Positions 86 to 19,870 of a stretch of 20,276 nucleotides of DNA are shown piece after piece. The stretch lies in UHGV virus genome UHGV-1757948. One strand, 5' to 3'. Origin of the DNA: a virus. The translations under genes and the position numbers were made by a program. Within the stretch, counting starts at the first letter, position 1, and every line of letters starts with the position of its first letter. Under the pieces are notes generated by a model. It worked only from the letters and a program-made list of their open reading frames with translations, was not told the origin of the DNA and made no database searches.

Positions 86-3000
86 GTGGATTTAACAGAC
101 ACCCTGACCGTGTCTCAATCCTCATTCAGAGCACAGCTCGATTCCATAAAAACAGAGATACTTACATCCCTGACTTATGGCATGCGTGGTGACATTTTAG
201 CACAATGCGCGAAGTATTTTCTGCGGAAAGACAGTCCGGACACAGCCTTGGATATTATAACATTCCTCAAAGGGCTGCTTGTGGGAGACGGAGACTACGG
301 CATAGATGCGGACGGTACCGCACGGCTGAAGAAACTTCTTGCCGACGAAGCCACAATGAAAACGCTGACCGTGACAGGAAGGGCACATTTCTTCGAGCTT
401 GTCATAGATGAGCTGAACAGCGTCGGAGGTCAACTGATACTGTCCGCTGCTAACTGCACGGTACGCTCTGTCGAAAGAATAAGCGGAGCATGGCGTCTGT
501 GGTGGCTGGCGGAGGACAGCGACGGCAGAGCCGTGCAGAACATGTGGAAGGTCGGAGACCAGGCTCTGGCAATGACATCCAATCTTGCCGAGGGGACATC
601 ATATGATGCAGGAAACAGACTATGGTGGAGACTTGTCACGGCAACAGGGAGCGGAACACGGAACATTGACGGTGAGGACAGAAAGTGCCATTGGATTGAA
701 GTGTCTGAAGCCACGTGCGCGGCTGACAGCCTTGAGCCTGCAGAGGGTGACAGCGTTTGTCTGTGCGGACACCGTGGTGACGACACAGCGCGCAGCCATG
801 CGATAATAATAGCCGCCCACTCCACTCCGGATACCGAGCTGGAGAGTCCGTCATTCGCGCAATACAACGGAATCACAAGTTTTTCTCTAAGCCAGTACCG
901 CACGACATGGTTCGCGGCTAACGGCAATAAGATAAGAGGCGAGCTGGATGTGGACACTTCCGGTCTTGTCAGCTACACGCACCTTGCATGGGGAAACGGT
1001 CCGGACGACTGGACAAAGGACAAATCCCAGAGCACGGCAAAAGACTGGCTCATGCTCGGCATATGCACAGACCGCACGGAGAGCGACGTGGCTCTCGTCT
1101 ACAGCGACTATGCATGGTCAAGGATTAAAGGTACTGACGGAAAGACCACATACTTCCATGTGAAATATTCTTCAAACGAGAACGGAAATCCCATGACAGA
1201 GACGCCCAACCTCTACATCGGCACATACGTTGACTTCACTGAGGCAGACAGCAACGACCCCTCGGACTACACGTGGTCACGCTTCCAAGGATATGACGGG
1301 GAGCAGGGGATACCGGGGAAAAACGGTACGGACGGAAAGACAAGCTACCTTCACATCAAATATTCCGACGACGGGGGAAAGACGTTCACCGCCAGCAACG
1401 GTGAGACACCGGGTGCGTGGCTCGGGCAATGCGTAGACTTCAACTCATATGACCCGACAAGCGTTACCTCATATAAGTGGACACGGATACGCGGTGAGGA
1501 CGGAGCGGACGGAAGTGACGGTGAACCCGGCACGGACGGGCAGGACGGATTCTCGTGGGCACTTGACCCTGCCGCCATAACATTGGAGGCTGACAGTGAC
1601 GGTGTGGTGAGCATGCAGGATGCGACATCACGTCTGCGCGCATGGCTCGGCACGCGCGAGATGACTGTCACCATTACCGCCATAGAGCCAGTGCACTGTC
1701 TTGCGTCACGCAACGGGGCGCAGGTTACAATAACCGCAATAGGGACATATACGGCAGACTGGGGAGGTTCGGTGCCGTACGGAGCGGGATGGGTGCAGAT
1801 TACGGCACAGGCAACACTGGGAGGAGAGACCCGCAGTGTGAGCTGCCGCCTGTCCTTCACTGTATCGTCCATGGCACTCTCATCGCAGATTAAGGCTGAG
1901 ACGGACAGCATAAGCCTTAAAGTCGGCTATCTTGGGGCAAAGGACGGAAACATGGTGACCACTCCTGACATATTCCTGACAGGGAACGGGAACAAGACAT
2001 ACACAATCGGGGACATGTCAAGCCTGCGCGGAAAGACAATAACGGTATCATGCCTTGTCAAGACCGTATCCGCGGTTCCGGCGGCATCTGGCAACAGACG
2101 TATCGGCATGGAGCCCATGGTACGGTATGCCGACGGCAGCACGCAGTATCTCGGAACATGGAGGCAGATAACATCCACGGACACGTTCGAGGGACGCATA
2201 AGCTCCACACACAGGATACAGGATAAGGCTGTGGCGTCGGTAGAACAGTGTAACCTGTATATACAGGGCATATCATCAGGATACTCGTCCGTATCGCGTC
2301 CAAAGATAGAGACAGGTGCGGACGCGACAGACTGGGGACTCAGCGCGGAGGACAGGCTTAAAAGACCGAATCTTCTTCCAGGAACATCGGACTTCAGCCA
2401 ATGCACCGTACAGGATACCGTAGAGGCAGGAGCATACACGACACCTTACGGAGAAAAAATAAGCGTGGCACACGGTGTGAACGAAGCCGGGACATCATAC
2501 AAGGACGTCATCACATGGCGCAACGTGGTGCCCGAGCCGGGCGTACAGTATACGCTCTCATTCTGGGCGCGCGGCACAGGCAGCATCGGCTCGTACTTCT
2601 ATCCGAACTGCACCGACTGGGTCACAAGTCCGGGGACGAAGAACCAGACAGGTGTGACAGACGGATTCGTACAGTTCACGCTTGAAAGCGGATGGAACCG
2701 CTACCAGGTGACATGGAGCACACGCAACGATGTAAGCGGAGCGAAAAGTCTCATAGCGGCACGGCTCATGCCGGACAGTTCTGCACAGGGAGAGATCTGG
2801 ATATGCGGAGTGAAGCTGGAGAAAGGCAGCGAGGCGACAGACTGGCGTTCGGAGACAATCACGCACGACGAGCTGCAGGCGACAGGAATAGACATTGAGC
2901 ACAAGCGCATAAAGGTCACTGCCGACAACTTCGAGATACAGAACAACTCAGGCGAGACTGTCACCACTGTCGACGAGGCGGGCACCCTTACAGGTGTGAT

Positions 3001-3778
3001 GCTCCGCACTATGGACGAAGGACAGGGGCATGTGGAGATAAAGGGAGGACTGATTGAGGTAAAGAACCCTAACGGTGTGACCAACATCAAAATGGGATAT
3101 AACGGCTCATACATGGTACTGTCATATTATGACAATGACGGTACGTTCCTTTATGACCTCGGACCGTGGGGACTGTCCGGCAAGGATGTCTCGGAAGAAC
3201 GGTGGGAGACCAGCAGCAAATACGGACGCCTGCAGCTGACAGGGACCACATTCTCCACCGTAGGCGACATCGTTGGCAACAAACAGATAATGAACACCAT
3301 ATTCCAATATGGTCATGTGTACACGAAAACACCTTTGTACATGTATCTTGCAGGGCGCGTAAACGACACATATCTCAGCGGTGACTACGCCTCCACTCCG
3401 GAGATTGCAAGAGCCGCGAACGGCAGATGGTTCATGGAGCAGGGTAATGTGACCACGGCACAGGCTGTCACAGGAATGTGGGCGCAGGACAATCCGGAAT
3501 CGTTCATGATAGGCTCGCCTATGGACACACCGCCAATGGACTATACGCGATATGAAGATGACTATGCGGAAAAGGTGGATTTCTCCAGACAATGGTGCTC
3601 GCGCAATGTGTACAGATTCTCGAACATCGGAATCGTACAACCGGGAAGCGGCACCGTATACTACGGCAGCATGATAACGACAACAGCCGTATACATGAAT
3701 TATGACAGGGTGCAGATGATACAGATTAATCGCATTGACGATGATGACACGGACACGAACGGAAACATATATTTATGA
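86..3778 (+). CDS. Tail fibre / host-specificity protein with phage-tail-repeat-like modules, two collagen-like Gly-X-Y runs and a C-terminal lectin-like domain
   Basis: 1230-aa ORF. Three tandem ~60-aa modules (DYAWSRIKGTDGKTTYFHVKYS / DYTWSRFQGYDGEQG...SYLHIKYS / SYKWTRIRGEDGADG). Gly-X-Y runs GYDGEQGIPGKNGTDGKT and GEDGADGSDGEPGTDGQDG. C-terminal segment SFWARGTG...VKLEKGSEATDW recalls phage receptor-binding carbohydrate-binding domains. Start given as GTG at 86, but the frame is open to position 2, so the true start may lie upstream of the window; a different-frame ORF ends with TAA at 81-83. Confidence 0.8.
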   Translation: MDLTDTLTVSQSSFRAQLDSIKTEILTSLTYGMRGDILAQCAKYFLRKDSPDTALDIITFLKGLLVGDGDYGIDADGTARLKKLLADEATMKTLTVTGRAHFFELVIDELNSVGGQLILSAANCTVRSVERISGAWRLWWLAEDSDGRAVQNMWKVGDQALAMTSNLAEGTSYDAGNRLWWRLVTATGSGTRNIDGEDRKCHWIEVSEATCAADSLEPAEGDSVCLCGHRGDDTARSHAIIIAAHSTPDTELESPSFAQYNGITSFSLSQYRTTWFAANGNKIRGELDVDTSGLVSYTHLAWGNGPDDWTKDKSQSTAKDWLMLGICTDRTESDVALVYSDYAWSRIKGTDGKTTYFHVKYSSNENGNPMTETPNLYIGTYVDFTEADSNDPSDYTWSRFQGYDGEQGIPGKNGTDGKTSYLHIKYSDDGGKTFTASNGETPGAWLGQCVDFNSYDPTSVTSYKWTRIRGEDGADGSDGEPGTDGQDGFSWALDPAAITLEADSDGVVSMQDATSRLRAWLGTREMTVTITAIEPVHCLASRNGAQVTITAIGTYTADWGGSVPYGAGWVQITAQATLGGETRSVSCRLSFTVSSMALSSQIKAETDSISLKVGYLGAKDGNMVTTPDIFLTGNGNKTYTIGDMSSLRGKTITVSCLVKTVSAVPAASGNRRIGMEPMVRYADGSTQYLGTWRQITSTDTFEGRISSTHRIQDKAVASVEQCNLYIQGISSGYSSVSRPKIETGADATDWGLSAEDRLKRPNLLPGTSDFSQCTVQDTVEAGAYTTPYGEKISVAHGVNEAGTSYKDVITWRNVVPEPGVQYTLSFWARGTGSIGSYFYPNCTDWVTSPGTKNQTGVTDGFVQFTLESGWNRYQVTWSTRNDVSGAKSLIAARLMPDSSAQGEIWICGVKLEKGSEATDWRSETITHDELQATGIDIEHKRIKVTADNFEIQNNSGETVTTVDEAGTLTGVMLRTMDEGQGHVEIKGGLIEVKNPNGVTNIKMGYNGSYMVLSYYDNDGTFLYDLGPWGLSGKDVSEERWETSSKYGRLQLTGTTFSTVGDIVGNKQIMNTIFQYGHVYTKTPLYMYLAGRVNDTYLSGDYASTPEIARAANGRWFMEQGNVTTAQAVTGMWAQDNPESFMIGSPMDTPPMDYTRYEDDYAEKVDFSRQWCSRNVYRFSNIGIVQPGSGTVYYGSMITTTAVYMNYDRVQMIQINRIDDDDTDTNGNIYL
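1105..1558 (+). repeat. Intragenic tandem protein-module repeats (about three copies) including collagen-like triplet runs
   Basis: Repeated Y-x-W-S/T-R-I/F-x-G-x-DG ... S/T-Y-F/L-H-V/I-K-Y-S pattern read directly from the translation; Gly-X-Y runs at about 1288-1341 and 1492-1549. Confidence 0.55.
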
Positions 3779-8544: not shown

Positions 8545-8627
8545 AAAGGCGTTCTTTGACATTGTGGGTTGCCGTTAAAAATACAATATTTTCGAAAAAT
8601 TATATACAATTATTTTGGGAAATTATA

Positions 8628-8635
8628 TATCTTTG
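8628..8635 (+). promoter_or_regulatory. Possible Bacteroidota-type -7 promoter element (TAnnTTTG) in an AT-rich intergenic region
   Basis: TATCTTTG matches TAnnTTTG about 38 nt upstream of ATG 8673, flanked by direct repeats AAATTATATA (8597-8606 and 8619-8628). Could be chance in AT-rich DNA. Confidence 0.2.
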
Positions 8636-8672: not shown

Positions 8673-9302
8673 ATGACAGACGGTGTGCCCGTCTTAAATT
8701 TAAATTATATGGCAAAGATAAATAATAATTTTGAGAAACGAAAACGCATCACGAAAAATGAAGCGTTGGAACTGCTAAAAGATTGTTATGAGGACATCTT
8801 CAAGGCGTATTACGCAGGTCTGGAAAATTACAATGAAGAAATAAATATGACCATACCTGAAGCAAGGACAAGGCTTGTAGGTCCTTTGCTTAACGCAAAA
8901 ATAACAGAGAGTTTCATTCTCACATTTCCCGAGAACTGGAACAAAGGCAAATACGGAAGGATAATATTCAGATGGAACGGTGTGCTCATGCTCATCAAGA
9001 AATTGAACAAGAATGACAAGCCGTCTTACATTCCGACAATACTTTCAGATTCGATTGTCAACCAATACCAATTACCGCTTTTCCAAGGCGATGAAGGCAA
9101 GGAAGAGCCGATATTGATTTTCGGATATACAAAGGACGGTTTCGGGCAGCTCGTAAACCCGAGAATTGTCTTGTATGACGATGGGGTTCAATGGACTGCC
9201 TATATGGAAGACGGTGTAAATATGCCGACTGCCAATACAGACACGCAGGAGATTATTGTCCGCCTGAAAAAGAAAGAGACAGGAGAAAAGAAGGCAGAAT
9301 AA
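8673..9302 (+). CDS. Hypothetical protein (209 aa) in the AT-rich accessory insert
   Basis: Long ORF with plausible composition and no recognisable motif. Alternative start at ATG 8709 (MAKINNN). Confidence 0.5.
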   Translation: MTDGVPVLNLNYMAKINNNFEKRKRITKNEALELLKDCYEDIFKAYYAGLENYNEEINMTIPEARTRLVGPLLNAKITESFILTFPENWNKGKYGRIIFRWNGVLMLIKKLNKNDKPSYIPTILSDSIVNQYQLPLFQGDEGKEEPILIFGYTKDGFGQLVNPRIVLYDDGVQWTAYMEDGVNMPTANTDTQEIIVRLKKKETGEKKAE

Positions 9303-9354: not shown

Positions 9355-10410
9355 ATGAAATGTGAGCAGCTAACATTCGCAAGGGAATACAGGGGATTTA
9401 CGCAAACCGCACTCGCGGCAAAAGTCAAAGGGCTATCGCAATCCAACCTGTCAAAATATGAAAAGGGGTTTGGCGGGCTGTCAGACAACATGCTTAGTTT
9501 GATTATGTCCACGCTTGATTTTCCGATGAAATTCCTTGACATGAATATTGTGAACAAGGTTGACAGCAAGCATTACAGGAAAAAGGCAACCATAACCGTA
9601 AAGACACGCAACGAGATAGACAGGACAATATCCCTGATTGCGTATTGTTTTGATTGGCTTAGTGAATTTGTCGAGATACCTGACTATTCATTTGGATACT
9701 ACGACATGGACAACGGCATAAGCCCGGAGGAACTTGCCGGGCACATAAGGAACAAATACAGGCTCGGCATGTCGCCTATATCCGATATTTGCAATTTCCT
9801 TGAGCGCAATGGGGTATTCATTTACATGTGGGACAGTCCTAACGACGAGTTTGACGGGGTATCCCTGATAACTGACGCAGGCAATCATCTTATCATTGTG
9901 AACAGGAACAGAAGCAACGACAGGGTAAGGTTTACGCTTGCACATGAGCTGGGACACATACTGATGCACGAGTGCCCAAGTTTCCCGGTATTCAGCATTA
10001 GAGACAAGGAGAAAGAGGCGAACGCTTTTGCATCAGAGTTCCTTCTCCCCTCCCAGGCTGTCAGAAACGCCTTGCACAATGTCAGGCTCGGACAGTTCCC
10101 TGAGCTGAAACGGTATTGGCTTGTTTCCATGGCATCACTTTTGGAAAAGGCAAAAAACATAAACGCCATTGCAAGTGAGAAGTACAAGTCTATGAGAATG
10201 GAGTTCAGCAGACGCCATTGGAATAAGAAAGAACCTTACGAAGTGCCTATTGACAGCCCTACCGTCTTTGAGCAGGCATATAGGCTGGTATCGGACACAT
10301 TGGGGTATTCAATCAGCATGATTTCGGAAAGCACAGGCTTGCCCGAGGATGTCTTGATAAAGATATTCGGCAAATCTGCGAGGATAATATCATTAAAGCC
10401 ACTAATATAA
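9355..10410 (+). CDS. XRE-family HTH domain fused to an ImmA/IrrE (M78) zinc metallopeptidase domain
   Basis: N-terminal HTH (FTQTALAAKVKGLSQSNLSKYEKG) and central HEXXH motif within FTLAHELGHILMHE, typical of COG2856/Peptidase_M78; 351 aa. Confidence 0.85.
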   Translation: MKCEQLTFAREYRGFTQTALAAKVKGLSQSNLSKYEKGFGGLSDNMLSLIMSTLDFPMKFLDMNIVNKVDSKHYRKKATITVKTRNEIDRTISLIAYCFDWLSEFVEIPDYSFGYYDMDNGISPEELAGHIRNKYRLGMSPISDICNFLERNGVFIYMWDSPNDEFDGVSLITDAGNHLIIVNRNRSNDRVRFTLAHELGHILMHECPSFPVFSIRDKEKEANAFASEFLLPSQAVRNALHNVRLGQFPELKRYWLVSMASLLEKAKNINAIASEKYKSMRMEFSRRHWNKKEPYEVPIDSPTVFEQAYRLVSDTLGYSISMISESTGLPEDVLIKIFGKSARIISLKPLI

Positions 10411-12934: not shown

Positions 12935-13191
12935 TGCTGACCTCCTTTCTTCAAATCATTCAAAGCCTTGTCATTGCAGCTTTTACAAAACAATTTATTG
13001 AGAGTTCCTTTTAGCATGACTAAATAGACATCATCGTCATCCTTGAACTTGCGGTTGCAATTAAAACAAAGCCTTTGAACATAAAGCCCTATACTTTCTC
13101 TCGACTTGCGGAACTGCCAGAATTTCAAGAATGGCTTATCAACAGCGTTTAGTACCTCGTATTCACGTTTGGTGATTTTCACTACTTTCAT
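12931..13191 (-). CDS. Small zinc-ribbon-like protein (86 aa)
   Basis: Two CxxC pairs (CFNC ... CKSC); ATGA overlap with the YopX gene. Confidence 0.45.
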   Translation of the reverse strand: MKVVKITKREYEVLNAVDKPFLKFWQFRKSRESIGLYVQRLCFNCNRKFKDDDDVYLVMLKGTLNKLFCKSCNDKALNDLKKGGQQ

Positions 13192-13562
13192 TTTATACCT
13201 CCTTTCAGTAGCTCTGGGTTGTCGTGGATGTTGCCGATTATCGTTGCTTTATCGGTAGGAAGGAAGCCTAATCTTTCAATACCTCCGATAAAAGAGCATT
13301 CAGAATCACTATATTCCACATCCACAATATCTCCGTCTGGAAATTGAATAATATCCCCTTCGTAAATCTCCTTCCCCTTTTTATCATACAAGCCTGTGAA
13401 CTGGCTTACGGTGGAGGGGGCGATTTCTCGTTTCCACACGGCATTAGAGCTGTCGCTCTTTTCGAGAATGTTGCAGTCTCCGTCCGCCCATATTAAAAGC
13501 GAACCATAGCACCACTCATCGTTTGCAAGGCGTTTGCCTCTGAACTTGATTGCTCGTTTCAT
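13188..13562 (-). CDS. YopX-family phage protein
   Basis: MKRAIKFRGKRL N-terminus, TGLYDKKGKEIYEGDII and C-terminal IIGNIHDNPELL are hallmark YopX motifs. Confidence 0.85.
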   Translation of the reverse strand: MKRAIKFRGKRLANDEWCYGSLLIWADGDCNILEKSDSSNAVWKREIAPSTVSQFTGLYDKKGKEIYEGDIIQFPDGDIVDVEYSDSECSFIGGIERLGFLPTDKATIIGNIHDNPELLKGGIK

Positions 13563-13903: not shown

Positions 13904-14068
13904 TTATCTTGTGATTTTAGAGGAAATTTTCCTTGTATTTCCTTTGTTTTCCTTTGCCAAACACTCATTGCCACATCTTCTGCCCACGTCGTACTTATCG
14001 CACCATCCGTCTCCGTAGAAGCCTTCGTTAATGAAGTGGATACATGAGCCGCAGTGTCTTGCTTTCAT
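13904..14068 (-). CDS. Cys-rich micro-protein (54 aa), translationally coupled downstream of the PP-loop ATPase
   Basis: Hand translation MKARHCGSCIHFINEGFYGDGWCDKYDVGRRCGNECLAKENKGNTRKISSKITR; ATG overlaps the upstream TGA (ATGA at 14065-14068). Not in the ORF track (under 60 aa). Confidence 0.35.
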   Translation of the reverse strand: MKARHCGSCIHFINEGFYGDGWCDKYDVGRRCGNECLAKENKGNTRKISSKITR

Positions 14069-14982
14069 TTTTCGTCGTCTTTAAATTCAAATTTCTGTTG
14101 CAGGAACTCGTCAGCGTAGAACTGCTTGTAGCTCTTGTCGCTTATCCACCACCTAAAGCCTGTTTCAGCGTCGTTGAAATTGTGGTCGATATATCCGTTG
14201 TCTATCAGCCATTGGATTGTCTTTATCCAATTGCGTTTGACGTGCGGCCAGCGTTTAGCATCTTCCTTCTTTATCCGTGCGTTCGACATAGGGCAACAGA
14301 TGCAGCCAATGCGTGTATAACCCTCGTCGTAGAGTTCGCAGTGTGGTATGCCGTTCATGTTAAGGAACTCCCACACGTCGCGCTCCGTCCAATAGATTAT
14401 GGGCGATACAAGGATTTTGTCCTTACCGCCGACACACGCAACCATGCTCTCCTCATGTTCGCTCCATTGGTCAAAGGTTTCCTCATTGCGCTTGCCCTTT
14501 ATCTCTGTGGATATTTCCTCACGTTTTGCACGCCGTGCGCTTTCTTCTTTTCTCACACCGATAAGTGTCACCTTGCCAACGCCTGACGTTTCCTTGAACT
14601 CGGCACAACACCAACGCAAAGTCCTTGTCGGCAAGATGTGCTTTTTCTTCGCCATTTCGTAAATGCTCATCCGTGGTTTGATTAGCTCCACATCGGGGTA
14701 TTGCGTCTTGACGAAGCGGATGACTTCGGGCGGGTCTATGCTCGTAAGGTTCATGTGAGCCTTGAAGCGGACACCGGCCAGCTTTGCGACATGGTAGAGG
14801 CATTGGCTGTCCTTGCCGCCACTGAACGCAAGGTAAAAGCCGTTTTCGGGGTCGAGGCGCAACGCCATTTTCTCCGACTTCCGCAAAAGTTCGACGGAGT
14901 GTTCCAGCTTCCTTGCAAGCGGACGGCTTACCTTTGACATTACGGTGTCGTGGTCAAGCAGTATTATTTCACACGCTTTCAT
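14065..14982 (-). CDS. PP-loop ATP pyrophosphatase of the PAPS-reductase / DndC-like family
   Basis: PP-loop motif in LAFSGGKDSQCLYHV plus Cys clusters (WCCAEF, GCICCPMS) compatible with Fe-S or zinc binding; 305 aa. Confidence 0.8.
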   Translation of the reverse strand: MKACEIILLDHDTVMSKVSRPLARKLEHSVELLRKSEKMALRLDPENGFYLAFSGGKDSQCLYHVAKLAGVRFKAHMNLTSIDPPEVIRFVKTQYPDVELIKPRMSIYEMAKKKHILPTRTLRWCCAEFKETSGVGKVTLIGVRKEESARRAKREEISTEIKGKRNEETFDQWSEHEESMVACVGGKDKILVSPIIYWTERDVWEFLNMNGIPHCELYDEGYTRIGCICCPMSNARIKKEDAKRWPHVKRNWIKTIQWLIDNGYIDHNFNDAETGFRWWISDKSYKQFYADEFLQQKFEFKDDEK

Positions 14983-15113: not shown

Positions 15114-15260
15114 CTAATCGTCTACAATGGCTTTTGCTAAACCGAAGAGAAGGATATATATTCCTAACATGAGCAGTACCCATGGGAAACTTGTCAACAT
15201 CCATATAGAGGCTGCCACGCAAAGTGCACCGGCATGGATGATTAGTTCAGTTCTGTTCAT
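15114..15260 (-). CDS. Micro-membrane protein (48 aa) coupled to the radical-SAM gene
   Basis: Hand translation MNRTELIIHAGALCVAASIWMLTSFPWVLLMLGIYILLFGLAKAIVDD; ATG overlaps the radical-SAM stop (ATGA at 15257-15260). Confidence 0.35.
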   Translation of the reverse strand: MNRTELIIHAGALCVAASIWMLTSFPWVLLMLGIYILLFGLAKAIVDD

Positions 15261-16162
15261 TGCTTCATATTTTTAAGTTTGTAACTATTCTCATTAAGCC
15301 ACTTTTGGAAATACCATAACTGACCGCATCCGCCACCTATATCGTCTTGCCCTGCCGGGTTAAATACTCTCGTATTAAAACCTACGTCATTCATCTTTGA
15401 ATTAAAGTCACGGATTAAGTCAAGTTGTCGCTGTATTGATGAATGTACACTTTCATCCTTTTCGCAAATAACAGACAAAGTGACCTCCCATATATCAGGG
15501 TTAAATAATTCAGAGAGCCTCATAGCATCTTCCATATCATTATTCCCGACATGTACGCAATAATTAAAGAAAGGCTTTCTTCCGACATAAGAAGCCCAAA
15601 ACTCACCCGTAGAAGCTATTTGCCGAAGTGTTGACGTATTCGTTGCTATAAGTTTCTTCCTTTTTTCATCTGTACTTTCATGTACTGAAAATTGAAGACC
15701 TACTTTATCTATTTCTTTCGATAGTGCAATAAAATCAGACATGTATAAATACATCATGTGAGGGGCAGAAGTGCTTACAAGAAGTTGTGCGTTTGGATAT
15801 TTCACATGTAGACTTTCTATTGCAGGCTGCAATGCCGAGTAGTTGTAAAAAGGCTCTCCCATGCTCATAAACATAATTTGGAACTTTTTAATGTCATCAG
15901 TGCGGCAATCAATAGTAGATAATGCCCCATCAATCTGTTGTATTATTTCGTCAGTAGAAAGATTTCTGACAAAAAATTTGCCTGTTCCGCAGAAAGAACA
16001 TCCAACTGGACAACCGCTTTGAACCGAACAACATATAACTGTCCTTTTTTTGTATTCTCCATATCTATAAAGAACAGTTTCAGCAATAGCATTTGGCTTG
16101 TCCCACTCAAACACGAATTTCTTTACATTCGTATCACTTGATTCAAATACTTTTGTTTTCAT
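15257..16162 (-). CDS. RlmN/Cfr-family radical-SAM methyl synthase, N-terminally truncated
   Basis: VICCSVQSGCPVGCSFCGTG holds the CxxxCxxC radical-SAM cluster plus the upstream RlmN Cys118-equivalent; MFMSMGEPFYN matches the MGMGEP motif; LLVSTSA matches the STSG region; C-terminal GQDDIGGGCGQL matches the Cys355 region (DIDAACGQL) of E. coli RlmN. 301 aa, about 70 residues shorter at the N-terminus than RlmN; markedly AT-rich relative to neighbours. Confidence 0.85.
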   Translation of the reverse strand: MKTKVFESSDTNVKKFVFEWDKPNAIAETVLYRYGEYKKRTVICCSVQSGCPVGCSFCGTGKFFVRNLSTDEIIQQIDGALSTIDCRTDDIKKFQIMFMSMGEPFYNYSALQPAIESLHVKYPNAQLLVSTSAPHMMYLYMSDFIALSKEIDKVGLQFSVHESTDEKRKKLIATNTSTLRQIASTGEFWASYVGRKPFFNYCVHVGNNDMEDAMRLSELFNPDIWEVTLSVICEKDESVHSSIQRQLDLIRDFNSKMNDVGFNTRVFNPAGQDDIGGGCGQLWYFQKWLNENSYKLKNMKQ

Positions 16163-16652: not shown

Positions 16653-16855
16653 ATCTTTACATATTGGCTACACGCCTGTTGGTTGCACTTAACTTTCTGT
16701 AAACAATTGAACGTGCGGTTACTCTTGCGCACACGGCAGTAGGATATTACTTTGCTTCCACATTCCCACCGCTGGCGGTGAATACAAGTGCGGCACGTTT
16801 CTAAGGTTGATTCTTGCGGCTGAATGGTGTCAGCATTGCTAAATAAATCACTCAT
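16649..16855 (-). CDS. Small Cys-rich protein (68 aa)
   Basis: Seven cysteines including CRTC and a CxxxxC spacing; 4-nt overlaps with both neighbours. Confidence 0.45.
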   Translation of the reverse strand: MSDLFSNADTIQPQESTLETCRTCIHRQRWECGSKVISYCRVRKSNRTFNCLQKVKCNQQACSQYVKI

Positions 16856-17673
16856 AGCAGATCCTTTGCTTCTTCAATCAGGTCACCAAATGTGTCTAAG
16901 AACTGGTCGCGGACTTCGGGGGTGGGGAAAGCCAATATCCGGCTCACCGTCCAATAAGAGTTCTTTTCTTTCTTATTTGCTTTGTAACTAATGCAATATT
17001 TCATTTTATCATCCGTCCAATACGGCTTCCACCCCAATTGCTTCCACCAGGCGTTGCGGCAGACGAGAAGCTGGCAGAGGGCGAGCATGGGCTTGCCGAG
17101 ACCTTGCGGCAACATGTTTCTGTCGCTATCACCAAACAGACGTCCGTCATCGGACAATTCGCTTATACTGCATTTATAAACTTCGCTATCTTCTTCTATC
17201 AATTCCACGTCATTGATGCTACACAGGCATTTCAGCCACGTCTTGGGCAACCCTTTCTTCTTCTCTTTCAGCACGATGTTGCCTCGTTCGTCCAGGTGGT
17301 CGAACTCCCAGCCGTCGGGGACTGTAATTGTCTTTTCGTTTGTTTCCATATCTTCTTTGTTTTGTTGTTTAACTTCGATGTCTACGGTGTTGTTGACTGC
17401 GTTGTAGTATGCGAACGGTTCTTTGGACAGGACAACAGGGAATTTCACTCCTGCATACCGCTGCACAATGTGGTCGTAAAGAGGGTAAGGGTCGCCGACG
17501 GGTTCGAGCTTCTTGCATTTCGCTTTCACCCAACAATCTCTATTTCCATAGAAACTTGCACAATTTAAATCTTTAAATGATGCACAATCTTTGCAATAAT
17601 CATACATATCATCTTTCACGCACTGGTACCACTCTCCGTTGTGCTCAAATATCTCTCCTATCTTCCGTTCCAT
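16852..17673 (-). CDS. Hypothetical protein (273 aa) with a Cys-rich N-terminus
   Basis: Long ORF; N-terminal CxxC-type cluster (YDYCKDCASFKDLNCASFYGNRDC). Confidence 0.55.
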   Translation of the reverse strand: MERKIGEIFEHNGEWYQCVKDDMYDYCKDCASFKDLNCASFYGNRDCWVKAKCKKLEPVGDPYPLYDHIVQRYAGVKFPVVLSKEPFAYYNAVNNTVDIEVKQQNKEDMETNEKTITVPDGWEFDHLDERGNIVLKEKKKGLPKTWLKCLCSINDVELIEEDSEVYKCSISELSDDGRLFGDSDRNMLPQGLGKPMLALCQLLVCRNAWWKQLGWKPYWTDDKMKYCISYKANKKEKNSYWTVSRILAFPTPEVRDQFLDTFGDLIEEAKDLL

Positions 17674-18958: not shown

Positions 18959-19675
18959 TCAGTCCTCCCTCACTTCTATAGGCTCACCGTCAACTAACTT
19001 ATACCAAGTGTCGGACTTTATTGTCTCTCCGTCTACCTTGAATGCCTTGACATCCTTTATAGGATACGTTTCTCCGTTCCAACTGTCACGTTCCGTAAGG
19101 ACTATCCAGCAGCCGAGAGCACCTTTCGCCTTGCTGCCCTTGCCTGTCACTATGGCAACAGAATCCTTACCATCAACACTTGCGGCGGAGCAGTCGCCCG
19201 TGTTGGTGGCGGCTGACCTGTAGCCCGTGTTGGTAGCAGCGGAGCAGTCGCCCGTGTTGGTGGCGGCGGAGCAGTTGCCCGTGTTGGTGGCGGCTGACCA
19301 GTCGCCCGTGTTCGATTGTTTATTATCATCCCATTTTACATGGTCCATGATGAACTTGACTCCTGCTTTAATCAGTCCCTGTAAGCCTATTTCGGCTTTG
19401 ATTTTCAAATGGGTACAACATATTTTATCAGGTTTAGACTTGTCAAAATCACCGCTGCCTTCAACTTCACAAAACCTGTTCGGTGTTCCCGTTTCGTCGC
19501 ACGGAGCGTAAAAGCCCAGCACATCCATAGGGCATTCGCAATAATGGAAACCGGTATTGCAGGCGACCGCCTTGTCTGTTGAATACTCCTTGCCGACTTC
19601 GTACTGGAAGCCGCGGCACTTCAGGTCTTTGTCAAAACCTTTATAGCCATGAATCGTTTCTGTCTCTTTTTTCAT
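18959..19675 (-). CDS. Hypothetical Cys-rich protein containing five tandem 9-aa repeats (SAATNTGxx)
   Basis: 238-aa ORF. The N-terminal domain carries many Cys and His (CRGF, CNTGFHYCECP, CDETG, CCTH). Central run WSAATNTGNCSAATNTGDCSAATNTGYRSAATNTGDCSAA is encoded by 27-bp tandem repeats. Confidence 0.6.
   Translation of the reverse strand: MKKETETIHGYKGFDKDLKCRGFQYEVGKEYSTDKAVACNTGFHYCECPMDVLGFYAPCDETGTPNRFCEVEGSGDFDKSKPDKICCTHLKIKAEIGLQGLIKAGVKFIMDHVKWDDNKQSNTGDWSAATNTGNCSAATNTGDCSAATNTGYRSAATNTGDCSAASVDGKDSVAIVTGKGSKAKGALGCWIVLTERDSWNGETYPIKDVKAFKVDGETIKSDTWYKLVDGEPIEVRED
19183..19317 (-). repeat. Five tandem copies of a 27-bp unit inside the 18959-19675 gene
   Basis: Anchor CCCGTGTTGGT (plus strand) recurs at 19197, 19224, 19251, 19278 and 19305, exactly 27 bp apart, with small substitutions between copies; in frame. 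Confidence 0.85.
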
Positions 19676-19687
19676 AGTTTTGAATTT

Positions 19688-19870
19688 TCATTTGTTACGC
19701 AACTGTATGAAGCCGTCGGCTTCGTATTTTTTCAGTTCGGCAAGTCCGTCATCCGTAACGGTGACGATATTCTCTCCGTTTACCGTCATGCCTTCTACGA
19801 TGCCGAACCGCTGCCGGATATTGTCTATGATGCGGGCGTTCTCCGTCACCCAGTAGATTGTAATTCTCAT
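19688..19870 (-). CDS. Small hypothetical protein (60 aa)
   Basis: Start taken at the internal ATG 19870 (MRITIYWV...), which is preceded by CAGGAG; the longer track ORF (to 19978) would overlap the upstream gene by 20 nt. Confidence 0.4.
   Translation of the reverse strand: MRITIYWVTENARIIDNIRQRFGIVEGMTVNGENIVTVTDDGLAELKKYEADGFIQLRNK

Follow-up and report, generated by a model that had tools for sequence, protein, structure and literature searches.

The virus genome UHGV-1757948 was analyzed as a single stretch of 20,276 bp (hereafter, the window), which is the whole contig ERZ1310104 NODE_1063 of a tailed phage, assembled from short reads at 3.45x coverage. Its minus-strand open reading frame (ORF) 18959-19675 encodes a protein of 238 amino acids (aa), 100% matched by the database protein P0006 (ENA ERZ1310104 NODE_1063), that consists of three parts: a DUF7666 domain, an array of SAATNTGxx nonapeptides specified by an in-frame tandem 27-bp repeat, and a small C-terminal domain. 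Comparison with relatives revealed that the "xx" of each unit is a family-wide hypervariable di-residue set on a homogenized scaffold, a feature beyond the preliminary description of this DNA, and that the number of units, together with protein length, varies between related phages.

The array and its DUF7666 protein family

The gene contains the following features.

18959..19675, minus strand: complete ORF of 238 codons and a stop, encoding a phage accessory protein of the DUF7666 family, from the ORF list
19364..19654, minus strand: N-terminal DUF7666 domain, aa 8-104, from Pfam; fold predicted confidently
19340..19387, minus strand: predicted alpha-helix, approximately aa 97-112, joining the N-domain to the array in both AlphaFold2 (AF2) models
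19190..19324, minus strand: tandem array of five 27-bp units, aa 118-162, from Tandem Repeats Finder and the codon-register listing
19298..19303, minus strand: variable di-residue codons of unit 1, D125 W126 (these and the next four from the register listing and family statistics)
19271..19276, minus strand: variable di-residue codons of unit 2, N134 C135
19244..19249, minus strand: variable di-residue codons of unit 3, D143 C144
19217..19222, minus strand: variable di-residue codons of unit 4, Y152 R153
19190..19195, minus strand: variable di-residue codons of unit 5, D161 C162
19109..19189, minus strand: three progressively degenerate 9-residue units, SAASVDGKD, SVAIVTGKG and SKAKGALGC, from the register listing
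18962..19108, minus strand: small C-terminal beta domain, aa 190-238, WIVLTER...KAFKVDG...WYKL, from alignments, PHROG 27197 and AF2

Tandem Repeats Finder reports a 27-bp period in 4.9 copies at 19182-19312 (84% matches, no indels, score 199), by far the strongest tandem repeat of the window. The codon register resolves this array into a half-degenerate first unit (NKQSNTGDW, aa 118-126) and four canonical units: SAATNTGNC (aa 127-135), SAATNTGDC (136-144), SAATNTGYR (145-153), and SAATNTGDC (154-162). The preliminary description, which had recognized in-frame 27-bp repeats encoding SAATNTGxx nonapeptides, is thus confirmed, and its coordinates for the five units (19183-19317, 135 bp) are right to within a few bases of the register. 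It had further called the flanking domain rich in Cys and His; the first half of this statement stands, with 12 Cys among 238 residues (8 in the N-domain and 3 in variable di-residues), but the protein has only 4 His. The three degenerate units continue the same strand-turn periodicity up to the C-terminal cap, with a strand every 9 residues in the AF2 model, and their "xx" positions also differ among near-identical relatives of 197 aa. Changes in copy number preserve the reading frame because the unit is 27 bp long; an on/off phase-variable contingency locus was therefore discarded, the unit being divisible by three. The repeat is not a chance feature, as thousands of homologues share this array architecture.

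The protein belongs to the DUF7666 family. The Pfam profile (PF24703) scores 110.6 bits, with a cutoff of 27 (E 5.3e-32), over aa 8-104 and its positions 1-95 of 95, and PHROG 4433, of unknown function, matches the window protein with E 9.5e-84. DUF7666 was found in all 104 diverse relatives scanned with Pfam and is the only family widely common among them. Alignments depict a typical architecture of N-domain, array of 8- or 9-residue units, and a KAKGxLGxWIVL...VDG...Y.L domain, to which the window protein conforms; at least two units are present in 93 of 150 diverse DUF7666 representatives. The C-terminal domain (AF2 predicted local distance difference test [pLDDT] score 70-91) is kept together with the array across the family, and PHROG 27197 matches aa 140-235 of the window protein.

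A HMMER search with the N-domain retrieved 4,120 representatives of 50%-identity clusters at E <= 1e-3, and 1,601 at E <= 1e-10. Homologues occur in the cultured temperate phages ES18 (gp53), SEN22, S107, S135, and S137 of Salmonella, in phages of Pseudomonas, Vibrio, Acinetobacter, Ralstonia, Blautia, and Bacteroides, and in genomes of Bacillota and Bacteroidota. The family is thus widespread in temperate phages and prophages of Bacteroidota, Bacillota, and Proteobacteria; complete Escherichia coli genomes yielded no homologue. Megablast found no near-identical genome among GenBank phages, and in distant blastn comparisons with the same set Vibrio and Salmonella phages were matched in the repeat only. 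The repeat DNA of the window is 78-81% identical to the arrays of Vibrio phage IKEMa6-1 and Salmonella phages SEN22 and GE_vB_TR, whose flanking domains share only 37-50% protein identity with those of the window protein; the repeat unit is the most conserved part of the gene.

Existing annotation adds little to this picture. PADLOC defense models did not match the window protein, and an NCBIfam YdhT match was disregarded (20 bits against a cutoff of 300). Several homologues (SEN22_35 of SEN22 and those of S107 and Bacteroides phage BF1-TP2) bear the GenBank label "c-type lectin precursor", which looks like a propagated BLAST artifact of low complexity; C-type lectin Pfam families matched neither the window protein nor appeared among the recurrent families of the 104 relatives.

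Variation in unit number and unit content

The array varies from 1 to about 24 units in relatives. A strict unit pattern counts 1 to 19 units in the 120 best homologues (median 11; a looser pattern raises the maximum to 20), and protein length correlates with unit number (r = 0.95). Complete proteins were grouped into lineages by a flank identity of at least 98.5% and equal flank lengths; arrays are unlike in 14 of the 17 lineages with near-identical flanks. Alleles often have terminal units in common and differ internally (P0003, P0007, P0026, and P0031), as would be expected from unequal recombination or slippage. Written by their di-residues, the arrays of P0003 and P0031 read DC NC NM DC NM DW NM DR DW NW NC and DC NC NM DC NM DW NW NC, respectively. 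In the lineage of the window itself, L084, a longer contig from this phage that is 99.6% identical to the window over approximately 10 kb, has ten units, NC NC NC NC DC GG NR NC DC NW, where the window has DW NC DC YR DC.

Cultured phages and finished genomes extend these observations. On the SAATNTG scaffold, the Salmonella phages ECO95 (S.Kent), ES18, and SEN22 hold 4, 11, and 22 units, respectively. Three sibling Acinetobacter phages, with flanks 99-100% identical, have unlike arrays: one of about 16 units, one of about 10 with ambiguity codes at the di-residue codons, and one that is frameshifted. Among finished or single-contig genomes, Paenibacillus oralis has 18 units, a Clostridia metagenome-assembled genome 20 (on a 2.4-Mb contig), and a complete Mucilaginibacter chromosome about 24. 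The expectation that copy number and protein length differ between related phages is therefore supported by the lineages, by L084, and by these cultured phages and finished genomes. To judge from the sequences, units would be gained and lost by unequal recombination or slippage.

Content varies too, and in a strikingly confined manner. Over 1,311 units of close homologues, positions 1 to 7 (S-A-A-T-N-T-G) are approximately 85-100% invariant, position 8 is D (580 units), N (375), or Y (313), and position 9 is R, C, Y, Q, W, K, or H; easily reached codons are rare, i.e., those for His at position 8 and for Ser and Asn at position 9. The two positions are interdependent (1,346 units), with Tyr at position 8 accompanied by R, Q, or K and avoiding aromatics and Cys. 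Analysis at the DNA level of 127 units from 17 arrays showed that scaffold synonymous sites differ in 0-7% of within-array unit pairs and vary freely between arrays (1.4-1.7 bits), while within arrays nucleotide 22 differs in 64% of the pairs and nucleotides 25-27 in 18-38%. A homogenized scaffold bearing a diverse pair is indicative of concerted evolution, with diversity maintained or repeatedly regenerated at four nucleotides. The variable pair is not bound to one scaffold: it also occurs on the distant scaffolds AGAQATGxx, ANAATNGxx, GAASATGxx, GHAAAQGxx, and SASQASGxx, and in the 8-residue units SALTGGxx and ANQVGGxx. Single-unit proteins likewise vary most at this pair.

Predicted structure and genomic setting

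Structure prediction of the flanking domain, proposed in the preliminary description, returned a confident N-domain fold: AF2 run on the window protein with a 50-sequence alignment scored it at pLDDT 82-94. Five models were made of a ten-unit allele from the lineage of the window; in the best one, the array reached a pLDDT of 70-83, and every unit consisted of a strand of five residues (A-A-T-N-T) followed by a turn of four (G-x-x-S). The array is thus predicted to form a beta-solenoid with two strands per coil and the variable pair in the turns, a location that would leave the pair exposed; folds named as alike are those of EibD, SufB, and Vag8, and also MinC-C and the CAP C-domain. Two profile matches of the array to entries of the Protein Data Bank (PDB) were set aside. 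That to a flagellin hook IN motif protein (VCBS-like) was treated as a periodic or compositional coincidence. The array profile also matched the nonapeptide C-terminal repeats of Spt5 (8qsz_Y; T/S-P-A-W-N-S/T-G-x-K/R) with E 7e-7; this too was taken as periodic or compositional resemblance, the common x-A-x-N-[ST]-G-x-x pattern being curious.

The N-domain is strongly conserved. Over 150 diverse representatives, K12, G13, F14, C20, Q24, G28, Y31, C39, G42, F43, H44, C46, P49, Y56, V71, K84, and E95 are invariant. In particular, C20, C39, H44, and C46 are kept in at least 147 of 151 sequences, and Cys 48, 59, 69, 86, and 87 are not; the former set is compatible with a zinc site. Zinc-finger Pfam families did not match the window protein. 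A weak but recurrent signal points instead to an ADP-ribosyltransferase (ART)-like fold, the likenesses named being to PARP13, PARP4, and PARP10, Arr, Tpt1/KptA, AcrF11, and TreTu; the annotators of Acinetobacter phage fEg-Aba01 recorded an Arr-like match of their own in its GenBank entry (phage paper PMC7354433). Moreover, an A1S_2505_Nterm domain (NF049995, E 1e-42) is fused N-terminally in 5 of the 150 representatives (P0263, P0284, P0358, P0367, and P0378) and in the homologue on the Mucilaginibacter chromosome (L100). Below threshold, this domain consistently matches Macro (20.4 bits, cutoff 22), TARG1/OARD1, and proteins that bind ADP-ribose, and NCBIfam labels the A1S_2505 family "phage non-structural protein". 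The best PDB matches of the N-domain profile, malate dehydrogenase and RBM22 (E 0.07-0.7), were taken as chance. An ART-like N-domain is therefore a lead rather than a classification, possible with the odds leaning against it, and a Cys3-His zinc site, in line with the possible metal binding raised in the preliminary description, has equal standing.

The location of the gene suggests when its product may act. One ORF adjoins it at its start.

19688..19870, minus strand: 60-aa ORF upstream of the gene in the same orientation, 12 bp from its start, matching PHROG 19578 of unknown function

This ORF adjoins only 5 of 50 DUF7666 loci and is not a conserved partner. In L084, genes for RecT, an FtsK/PDDEXK protein, VRR-NUC, a DNA methylase, and the 60-aa ORF precede the gene on the same strand; after it come small ORFs of unknown function together with radical-SAM-like, PAPS-reductase-like, and YopX genes. 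In the annotated P_L operon of ES18, gp53 directly follows the N-like antiterminator, the SEN22 homologue lies beside sieB and N, and in three Acinetobacter phages the homologue lies between cI/Xre and xis/int. From these positions in ES18, SEN22, and the Acinetobacter phages it is reasonable to infer an early or lysogeny-associated accessory gene. The "early protein" of the preliminary description is accordingly plausible, by extension from the P_L operon of ES18 and from the position of the gene here, after the DNA methylase in a recombination/replication module.

Neighbors are not conserved, and the gene thus behaves as a stand-alone cassette. An obligate toxin-antitoxin partner has been suggested (PMC7354433); a fixed partner is unlikely given the lack of conserved neighbors among the 50 loci. 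A RiPP (ribosomally synthesized and posttranslationally modified peptide) precursor role for the nearby radical-SAM gene was likewise rejected, the two genes being approximately 3 kb apart and no radical-SAM gene lying beside the homologues examined in ES18, SEN22, and the Acinetobacter phages. In the window, the PAPS-reductase-like gene (14065-14982, minus strand, 305 aa), the weak radical-SAM gene (15257-16162, minus strand, 301 aa), and YopX (13188-13562, minus strand) lie downstream in the same orientation and may belong to a DNA- or nucleotide-modification module.

Other elements of the window deserve mention. A neighboring ORF (16852-17673, minus strand, 273 aa), unmatched in PHROG, has a Cys-rich N terminus, CVKDD..YCKDCASFKDLNCASFYGNRDCWVKAKC, that looks more like a zinc ribbon or knuckle than anything in the array protein does. 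An AT-rich 23-bp tandem repeat (8581-8629, 2.1 copies, ATACAATATTTTCGAAAAATTAT) occupies an intergenic gap upstream of ORF 8673-9302 and of an ImmA/HTH regulator gene (9355-10410, plus strand) and may be an operator or regulatory repeat. ORF 86-3778 (plus strand, 1,230 aa), with mosaic matches to tail-fiber, host-specificity, and adsorption PHROGs, probably encodes the receptor-binding protein of the phage.

Interpretation and comparison with known systems

These findings can be accommodated in a single working model, in which the 27-bp repeat encodes the central module of a DUF7666 accessory protein of a temperate phage. Each 9-residue unit would contribute a short beta-strand (A-A-T-N-T) and a tight turn (G-x-x-S), and two units would make up one coil of a two-sheet, beta-roll-like stack that would continue into the three degenerate units and the small C-terminal cap domain. 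Unequal recombination, slippage, or gene conversion would keep the units of an array near identical, and the same processes would add or remove whole units with the frame intact, so that solenoid length would differ between close phages. Four nucleotides of the two turn codons stay diverse within an alphabet of D/N/Y followed by R/C/Y/Q/W/K. The resulting ladder of variable side chains along the solenoid edges might serve as a rapidly evolving recognition surface that tethers or directs the conserved N-domain to a variable host or phage partner during early infection or in the lysogen. The N-domain itself, with its invariant C20, C39, H44, C46, Y56, and E95, possibly handles NAD+ or ADP-ribose in an ART-like manner. 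As a whole, a length-variable solenoid with a di-residue recognition surface in a DUF7666 protein is our best explanation, with a probability of roughly 0.5; the binding-surface role, selection behind the diversity, and the enzymatic N-domain are the parts that we infer.

Several results weigh against this model. The solenoid is prediction-only, and exposure of the pair rests on its turn position; in the five-unit window protein, the array reached a pLDDT of only 38-56, albeit with a strand every nine residues, and only one of the five ten-unit models is confident. Most copy-number data derive from short-read metagenome assemblies, which are prone to collapse and mis-joining. The chi-square P value for the interdependence of positions 8 and 9 is overstated, and only indicative, units being phylogenetically nonindependent, and relaxed constraint combined with the shuffling of units, rather than positive selection, could account for di-residue diversity. 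The evidence linking the N-domain to ARTs is weak: a Foldseek comparison with the PDB gave nothing significant (best E = 0.9), a search of PDB sequences with the N-domain profile at E <= 10 returned no ART, and no ART or PARP Pfam family is among the 25 most recurrent of the 58 families matched by the 104 members at E <= 1. An E-x-E catalytic motif (E70, E72) was rejected, being absent from ES18, which has A-E-T-I, and from others. Our literature search on DUF7666, the SAATNTG repeat, and ES18 gp53 found nothing relevant.

An unlikely account is that the array is a neutral spacer, a flexible or rigid linker between two functional domains whose length and free residues drift under frequent slippage and weak selection. 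The low-complexity composition (S/A/T/N/G), the poor pLDDT of the five-unit array, the profile match to the disordered Spt5 repeats, the equal frequency of odd and even unit numbers, and the existence of functional-looking one-unit proteins are all in line with a spacer. A passive linker would not be expected to have near-invariant scaffold residues, nor does drift readily explain an alphabet at positions 8 and 9 that is restricted, shuns easily reached codons, covaries between the two positions, and is kept across phyla and scaffolds; the ten-unit model, moreover, folds as a solenoid.

A bolder version of the recognition model, drawn by analogy with the repeats of TAL effectors or the variable lymphocyte receptors of lampreys and quite unlikely in our opinion, is modular: the number of units and their di-residues would spell specificity for a polymeric or repetitive target (nucleic acid, glycan, or host defense protein), the solenoid would deliver an ADP-ribose-handling N-domain, and recombination would reprogram that specificity.

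Still less likely, the array might be a platform like a repetitive C-terminal domain, multiply modified or bound, whose units act as ADP-ribosylation acceptors or decoys for the protein's own N-domain or for a host enzyme, the pair setting the chemistry. D, N, Y, R, C, K, Q, and H are known ADP-ribose acceptor residues, and the ART-like fold signal, the macro-like fusions in some relatives, and the nonapeptide periodicity would all suit such a platform. Trp, however, is a frequent second residue and not a known acceptor, the periodic strands and solenoid matches favor a folded stack, and the ART assignment on which this idea leans is itself unproven.

It is very unlikely that the protein is a structural fiber or adhesin, i.e., a trimeric beta-helical shaft like YadA heads, gp5C needles, or tail fibers, which often vary in length. 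The gene is found together with early, recombination, or lysogeny genes and not with structural ones, the protein is small (about 200-370 aa), and the fused A1S_2505 family is called nonstructural by NCBIfam. Inspection by eye, with no predictor run, revealed no evident signal-peptide-like segment or membrane anchor at the N terminus (MKKETETIHGYKGF...), and the Gp5_C and collagen Pfam matches of relatives are explained by the G-rich 8-residue periodicity.

That variation in number and content is an artifact of collapse or mis-joining in low-coverage short-read assemblies is highly improbable as a general explanation, although it may well apply to the window itself. Two contigs 99.97% identical to the window (L081 and L082) differ from it by exactly 81 bp and have two units, DW DC; a third, equally identical contig ends inside the array (L031:1-270). 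The two-unit contig, at 2.74x coverage, comes close to the window in length as well as in its ends, and both may stem from the same or overlapping reads. With coverage of approximately 3x and nearly the same ends, the difference between two and five units at 99.97% flank identity may be assembly collapse, the two-unit version being the shortest path through a de Bruijn repeat graph; hence, both the count of five in the window and the two-unit "allele" may be assembly artifacts. More broadly, 42 of 80 IMG/VR loci start inside the array at a contig end (L030-L080, and also L098 and L099). The repeat is thus a systematic assembly breakpoint that could mimic terminal repeats in completeness calls, and many array-broken viral contigs are "genomes" of 40-60 kb. 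Short-read copy numbers of this array, including that of the window, should therefore not be trusted.

Anomalies occur in isolates as well. In fLi-Aba03 (L089, MT344105.1), ambiguity codes fall exactly at the di-residue codons of the array (locus approximately 2880-3100), and in fEg-Aba01 (L090, approximately 2880-3055) a frameshift inside the array leaves an annotated protein of only 195 aa; these anomalies stem either from a heterogeneous population or from difficulties in assembly. The proteins P0121 and P0141 also have frameshifted arrays in another frame, e.g., "...NTGTCQPQVLMVRILLP" and a "DDGxLCAL" repeat. The frameshifts in these and in fEg-Aba01 may be sequencing errors, but since P0121 occurs on 14 contigs, some truncations may be real. 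Variation among relatives nevertheless stands as a conclusion, because a collapsed array could not contain unit types that the other allele lacks, as is the case between the window and L084, because single-unit proteins still differ at the pair, and because cultured phages and finished or single-contig genomes hold long arrays, among them the 11 units of ES18, whose genome was presumably Sanger sequenced.

Finally, a diversity-generating retroelement (DGR) or similar mutator rewriting the two codons is scarcely credible: variation is confined to four nucleotides, as targeting would predict, but it is not adenine specific (nucleotide 23 is an invariant A, nucleotide 22 varies among G/A/T, and nucleotides 25-27 vary among T/C/A, G/A, and C/G/T), a gene with up to 20 or more targets would be without precedent among DGRs, and no reverse transcriptase is among the precomputed Pfam matches of the approximately 35 genes that flank the DUF7666 gene in this phage, 10 kb to either side, so that the substitution pattern and this absence together exclude a DGR-type mechanism.

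DUF7666 genes sit in the early or lysogeny accessory regions, where anti-defense, exclusion, and host-takeover genes are usually found, and a homogenized scaffold, a changeable number of units, and a hypervariable pair of conserved alphabet are the signature expected of an arms-race molecule. If the array is a specificity surface, programmable binding would gain a new repeat scaffold of natural origin, and a widespread phage-host interaction could be approached through it.

In the light of known systems, DUF7666 is catalogued but uncharacterized, and variable-number in-frame repeats and beta-solenoids are familiar. What appears undescribed is the combination of a concerted scaffold, a pair resembling the repeat-variable di-residues (RVDs) of TAL effectors with a conserved alphabet, beta units of 8 or 9 residues, occurrence in many temperate phages, and perhaps a link to ADP-ribose; it amounts to a good lead for experiments, not to a mechanism already established as new. 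The RTX beta-roll (CyaA block V, alkaline protease, and AlgE R-modules) has a nine-residue half-coil, the same geometry as predicted here. Its consensus, GGxGxDxUx with a calcium-binding Asp, differs from S-A-A-T-N-T-G-[DNY]-x, which has no GG...D turn, and RTX Pfam families matched neither the window protein nor the 104 relatives scanned. RTX repeats also have no hypervariable di-residue, and the protein described here is small, phage encoded, and probably cytoplasmic. YadA-like heads and Hep_Hag repeats (BpaC, EibD, YadA, and UspA1) have a 14-residue period and belong to obligate trimers with a membrane anchor and signal peptide, none of which was seen here; Pfam YadA_head matched 1 of 104 members with E 0.085. 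Variable-number tandem-repeat surface proteins and the beta-solenoid antifreeze and ice-nucleation proteins have no variable di-residue, and an ice-related or extracellular role is implausible for an early gene of a gut or temperate phage. In comparison with the H-Y-E ARTs (Arr, Tpt1/KptA, the PARP core, and the anti-CRISPR AcrF11), the candidate catalytic residues would be H44, Y56, and E95, each of them fully or almost fully conserved; these enzymes have no counterpart to the three invariant Cys of the DUF7666 domain.

A parallel in logic is provided by the RVDs of TAL effectors. In both cases, tandem units are near identical even at synonymous sites, two adjacent residues per unit vary, and the number and order of the units are reshuffled by recombination, a logic that extends to PUF/PPR codes and to the leucine-rich repeat (LRR) variable lymphocyte receptors. 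TAL-effector repeats are helical units of 33-35 residues that each read one DNA base, whereas those of the DUF7666 array are predicted beta units of 9 residues, and the likeness between the two is thus one of analogy.

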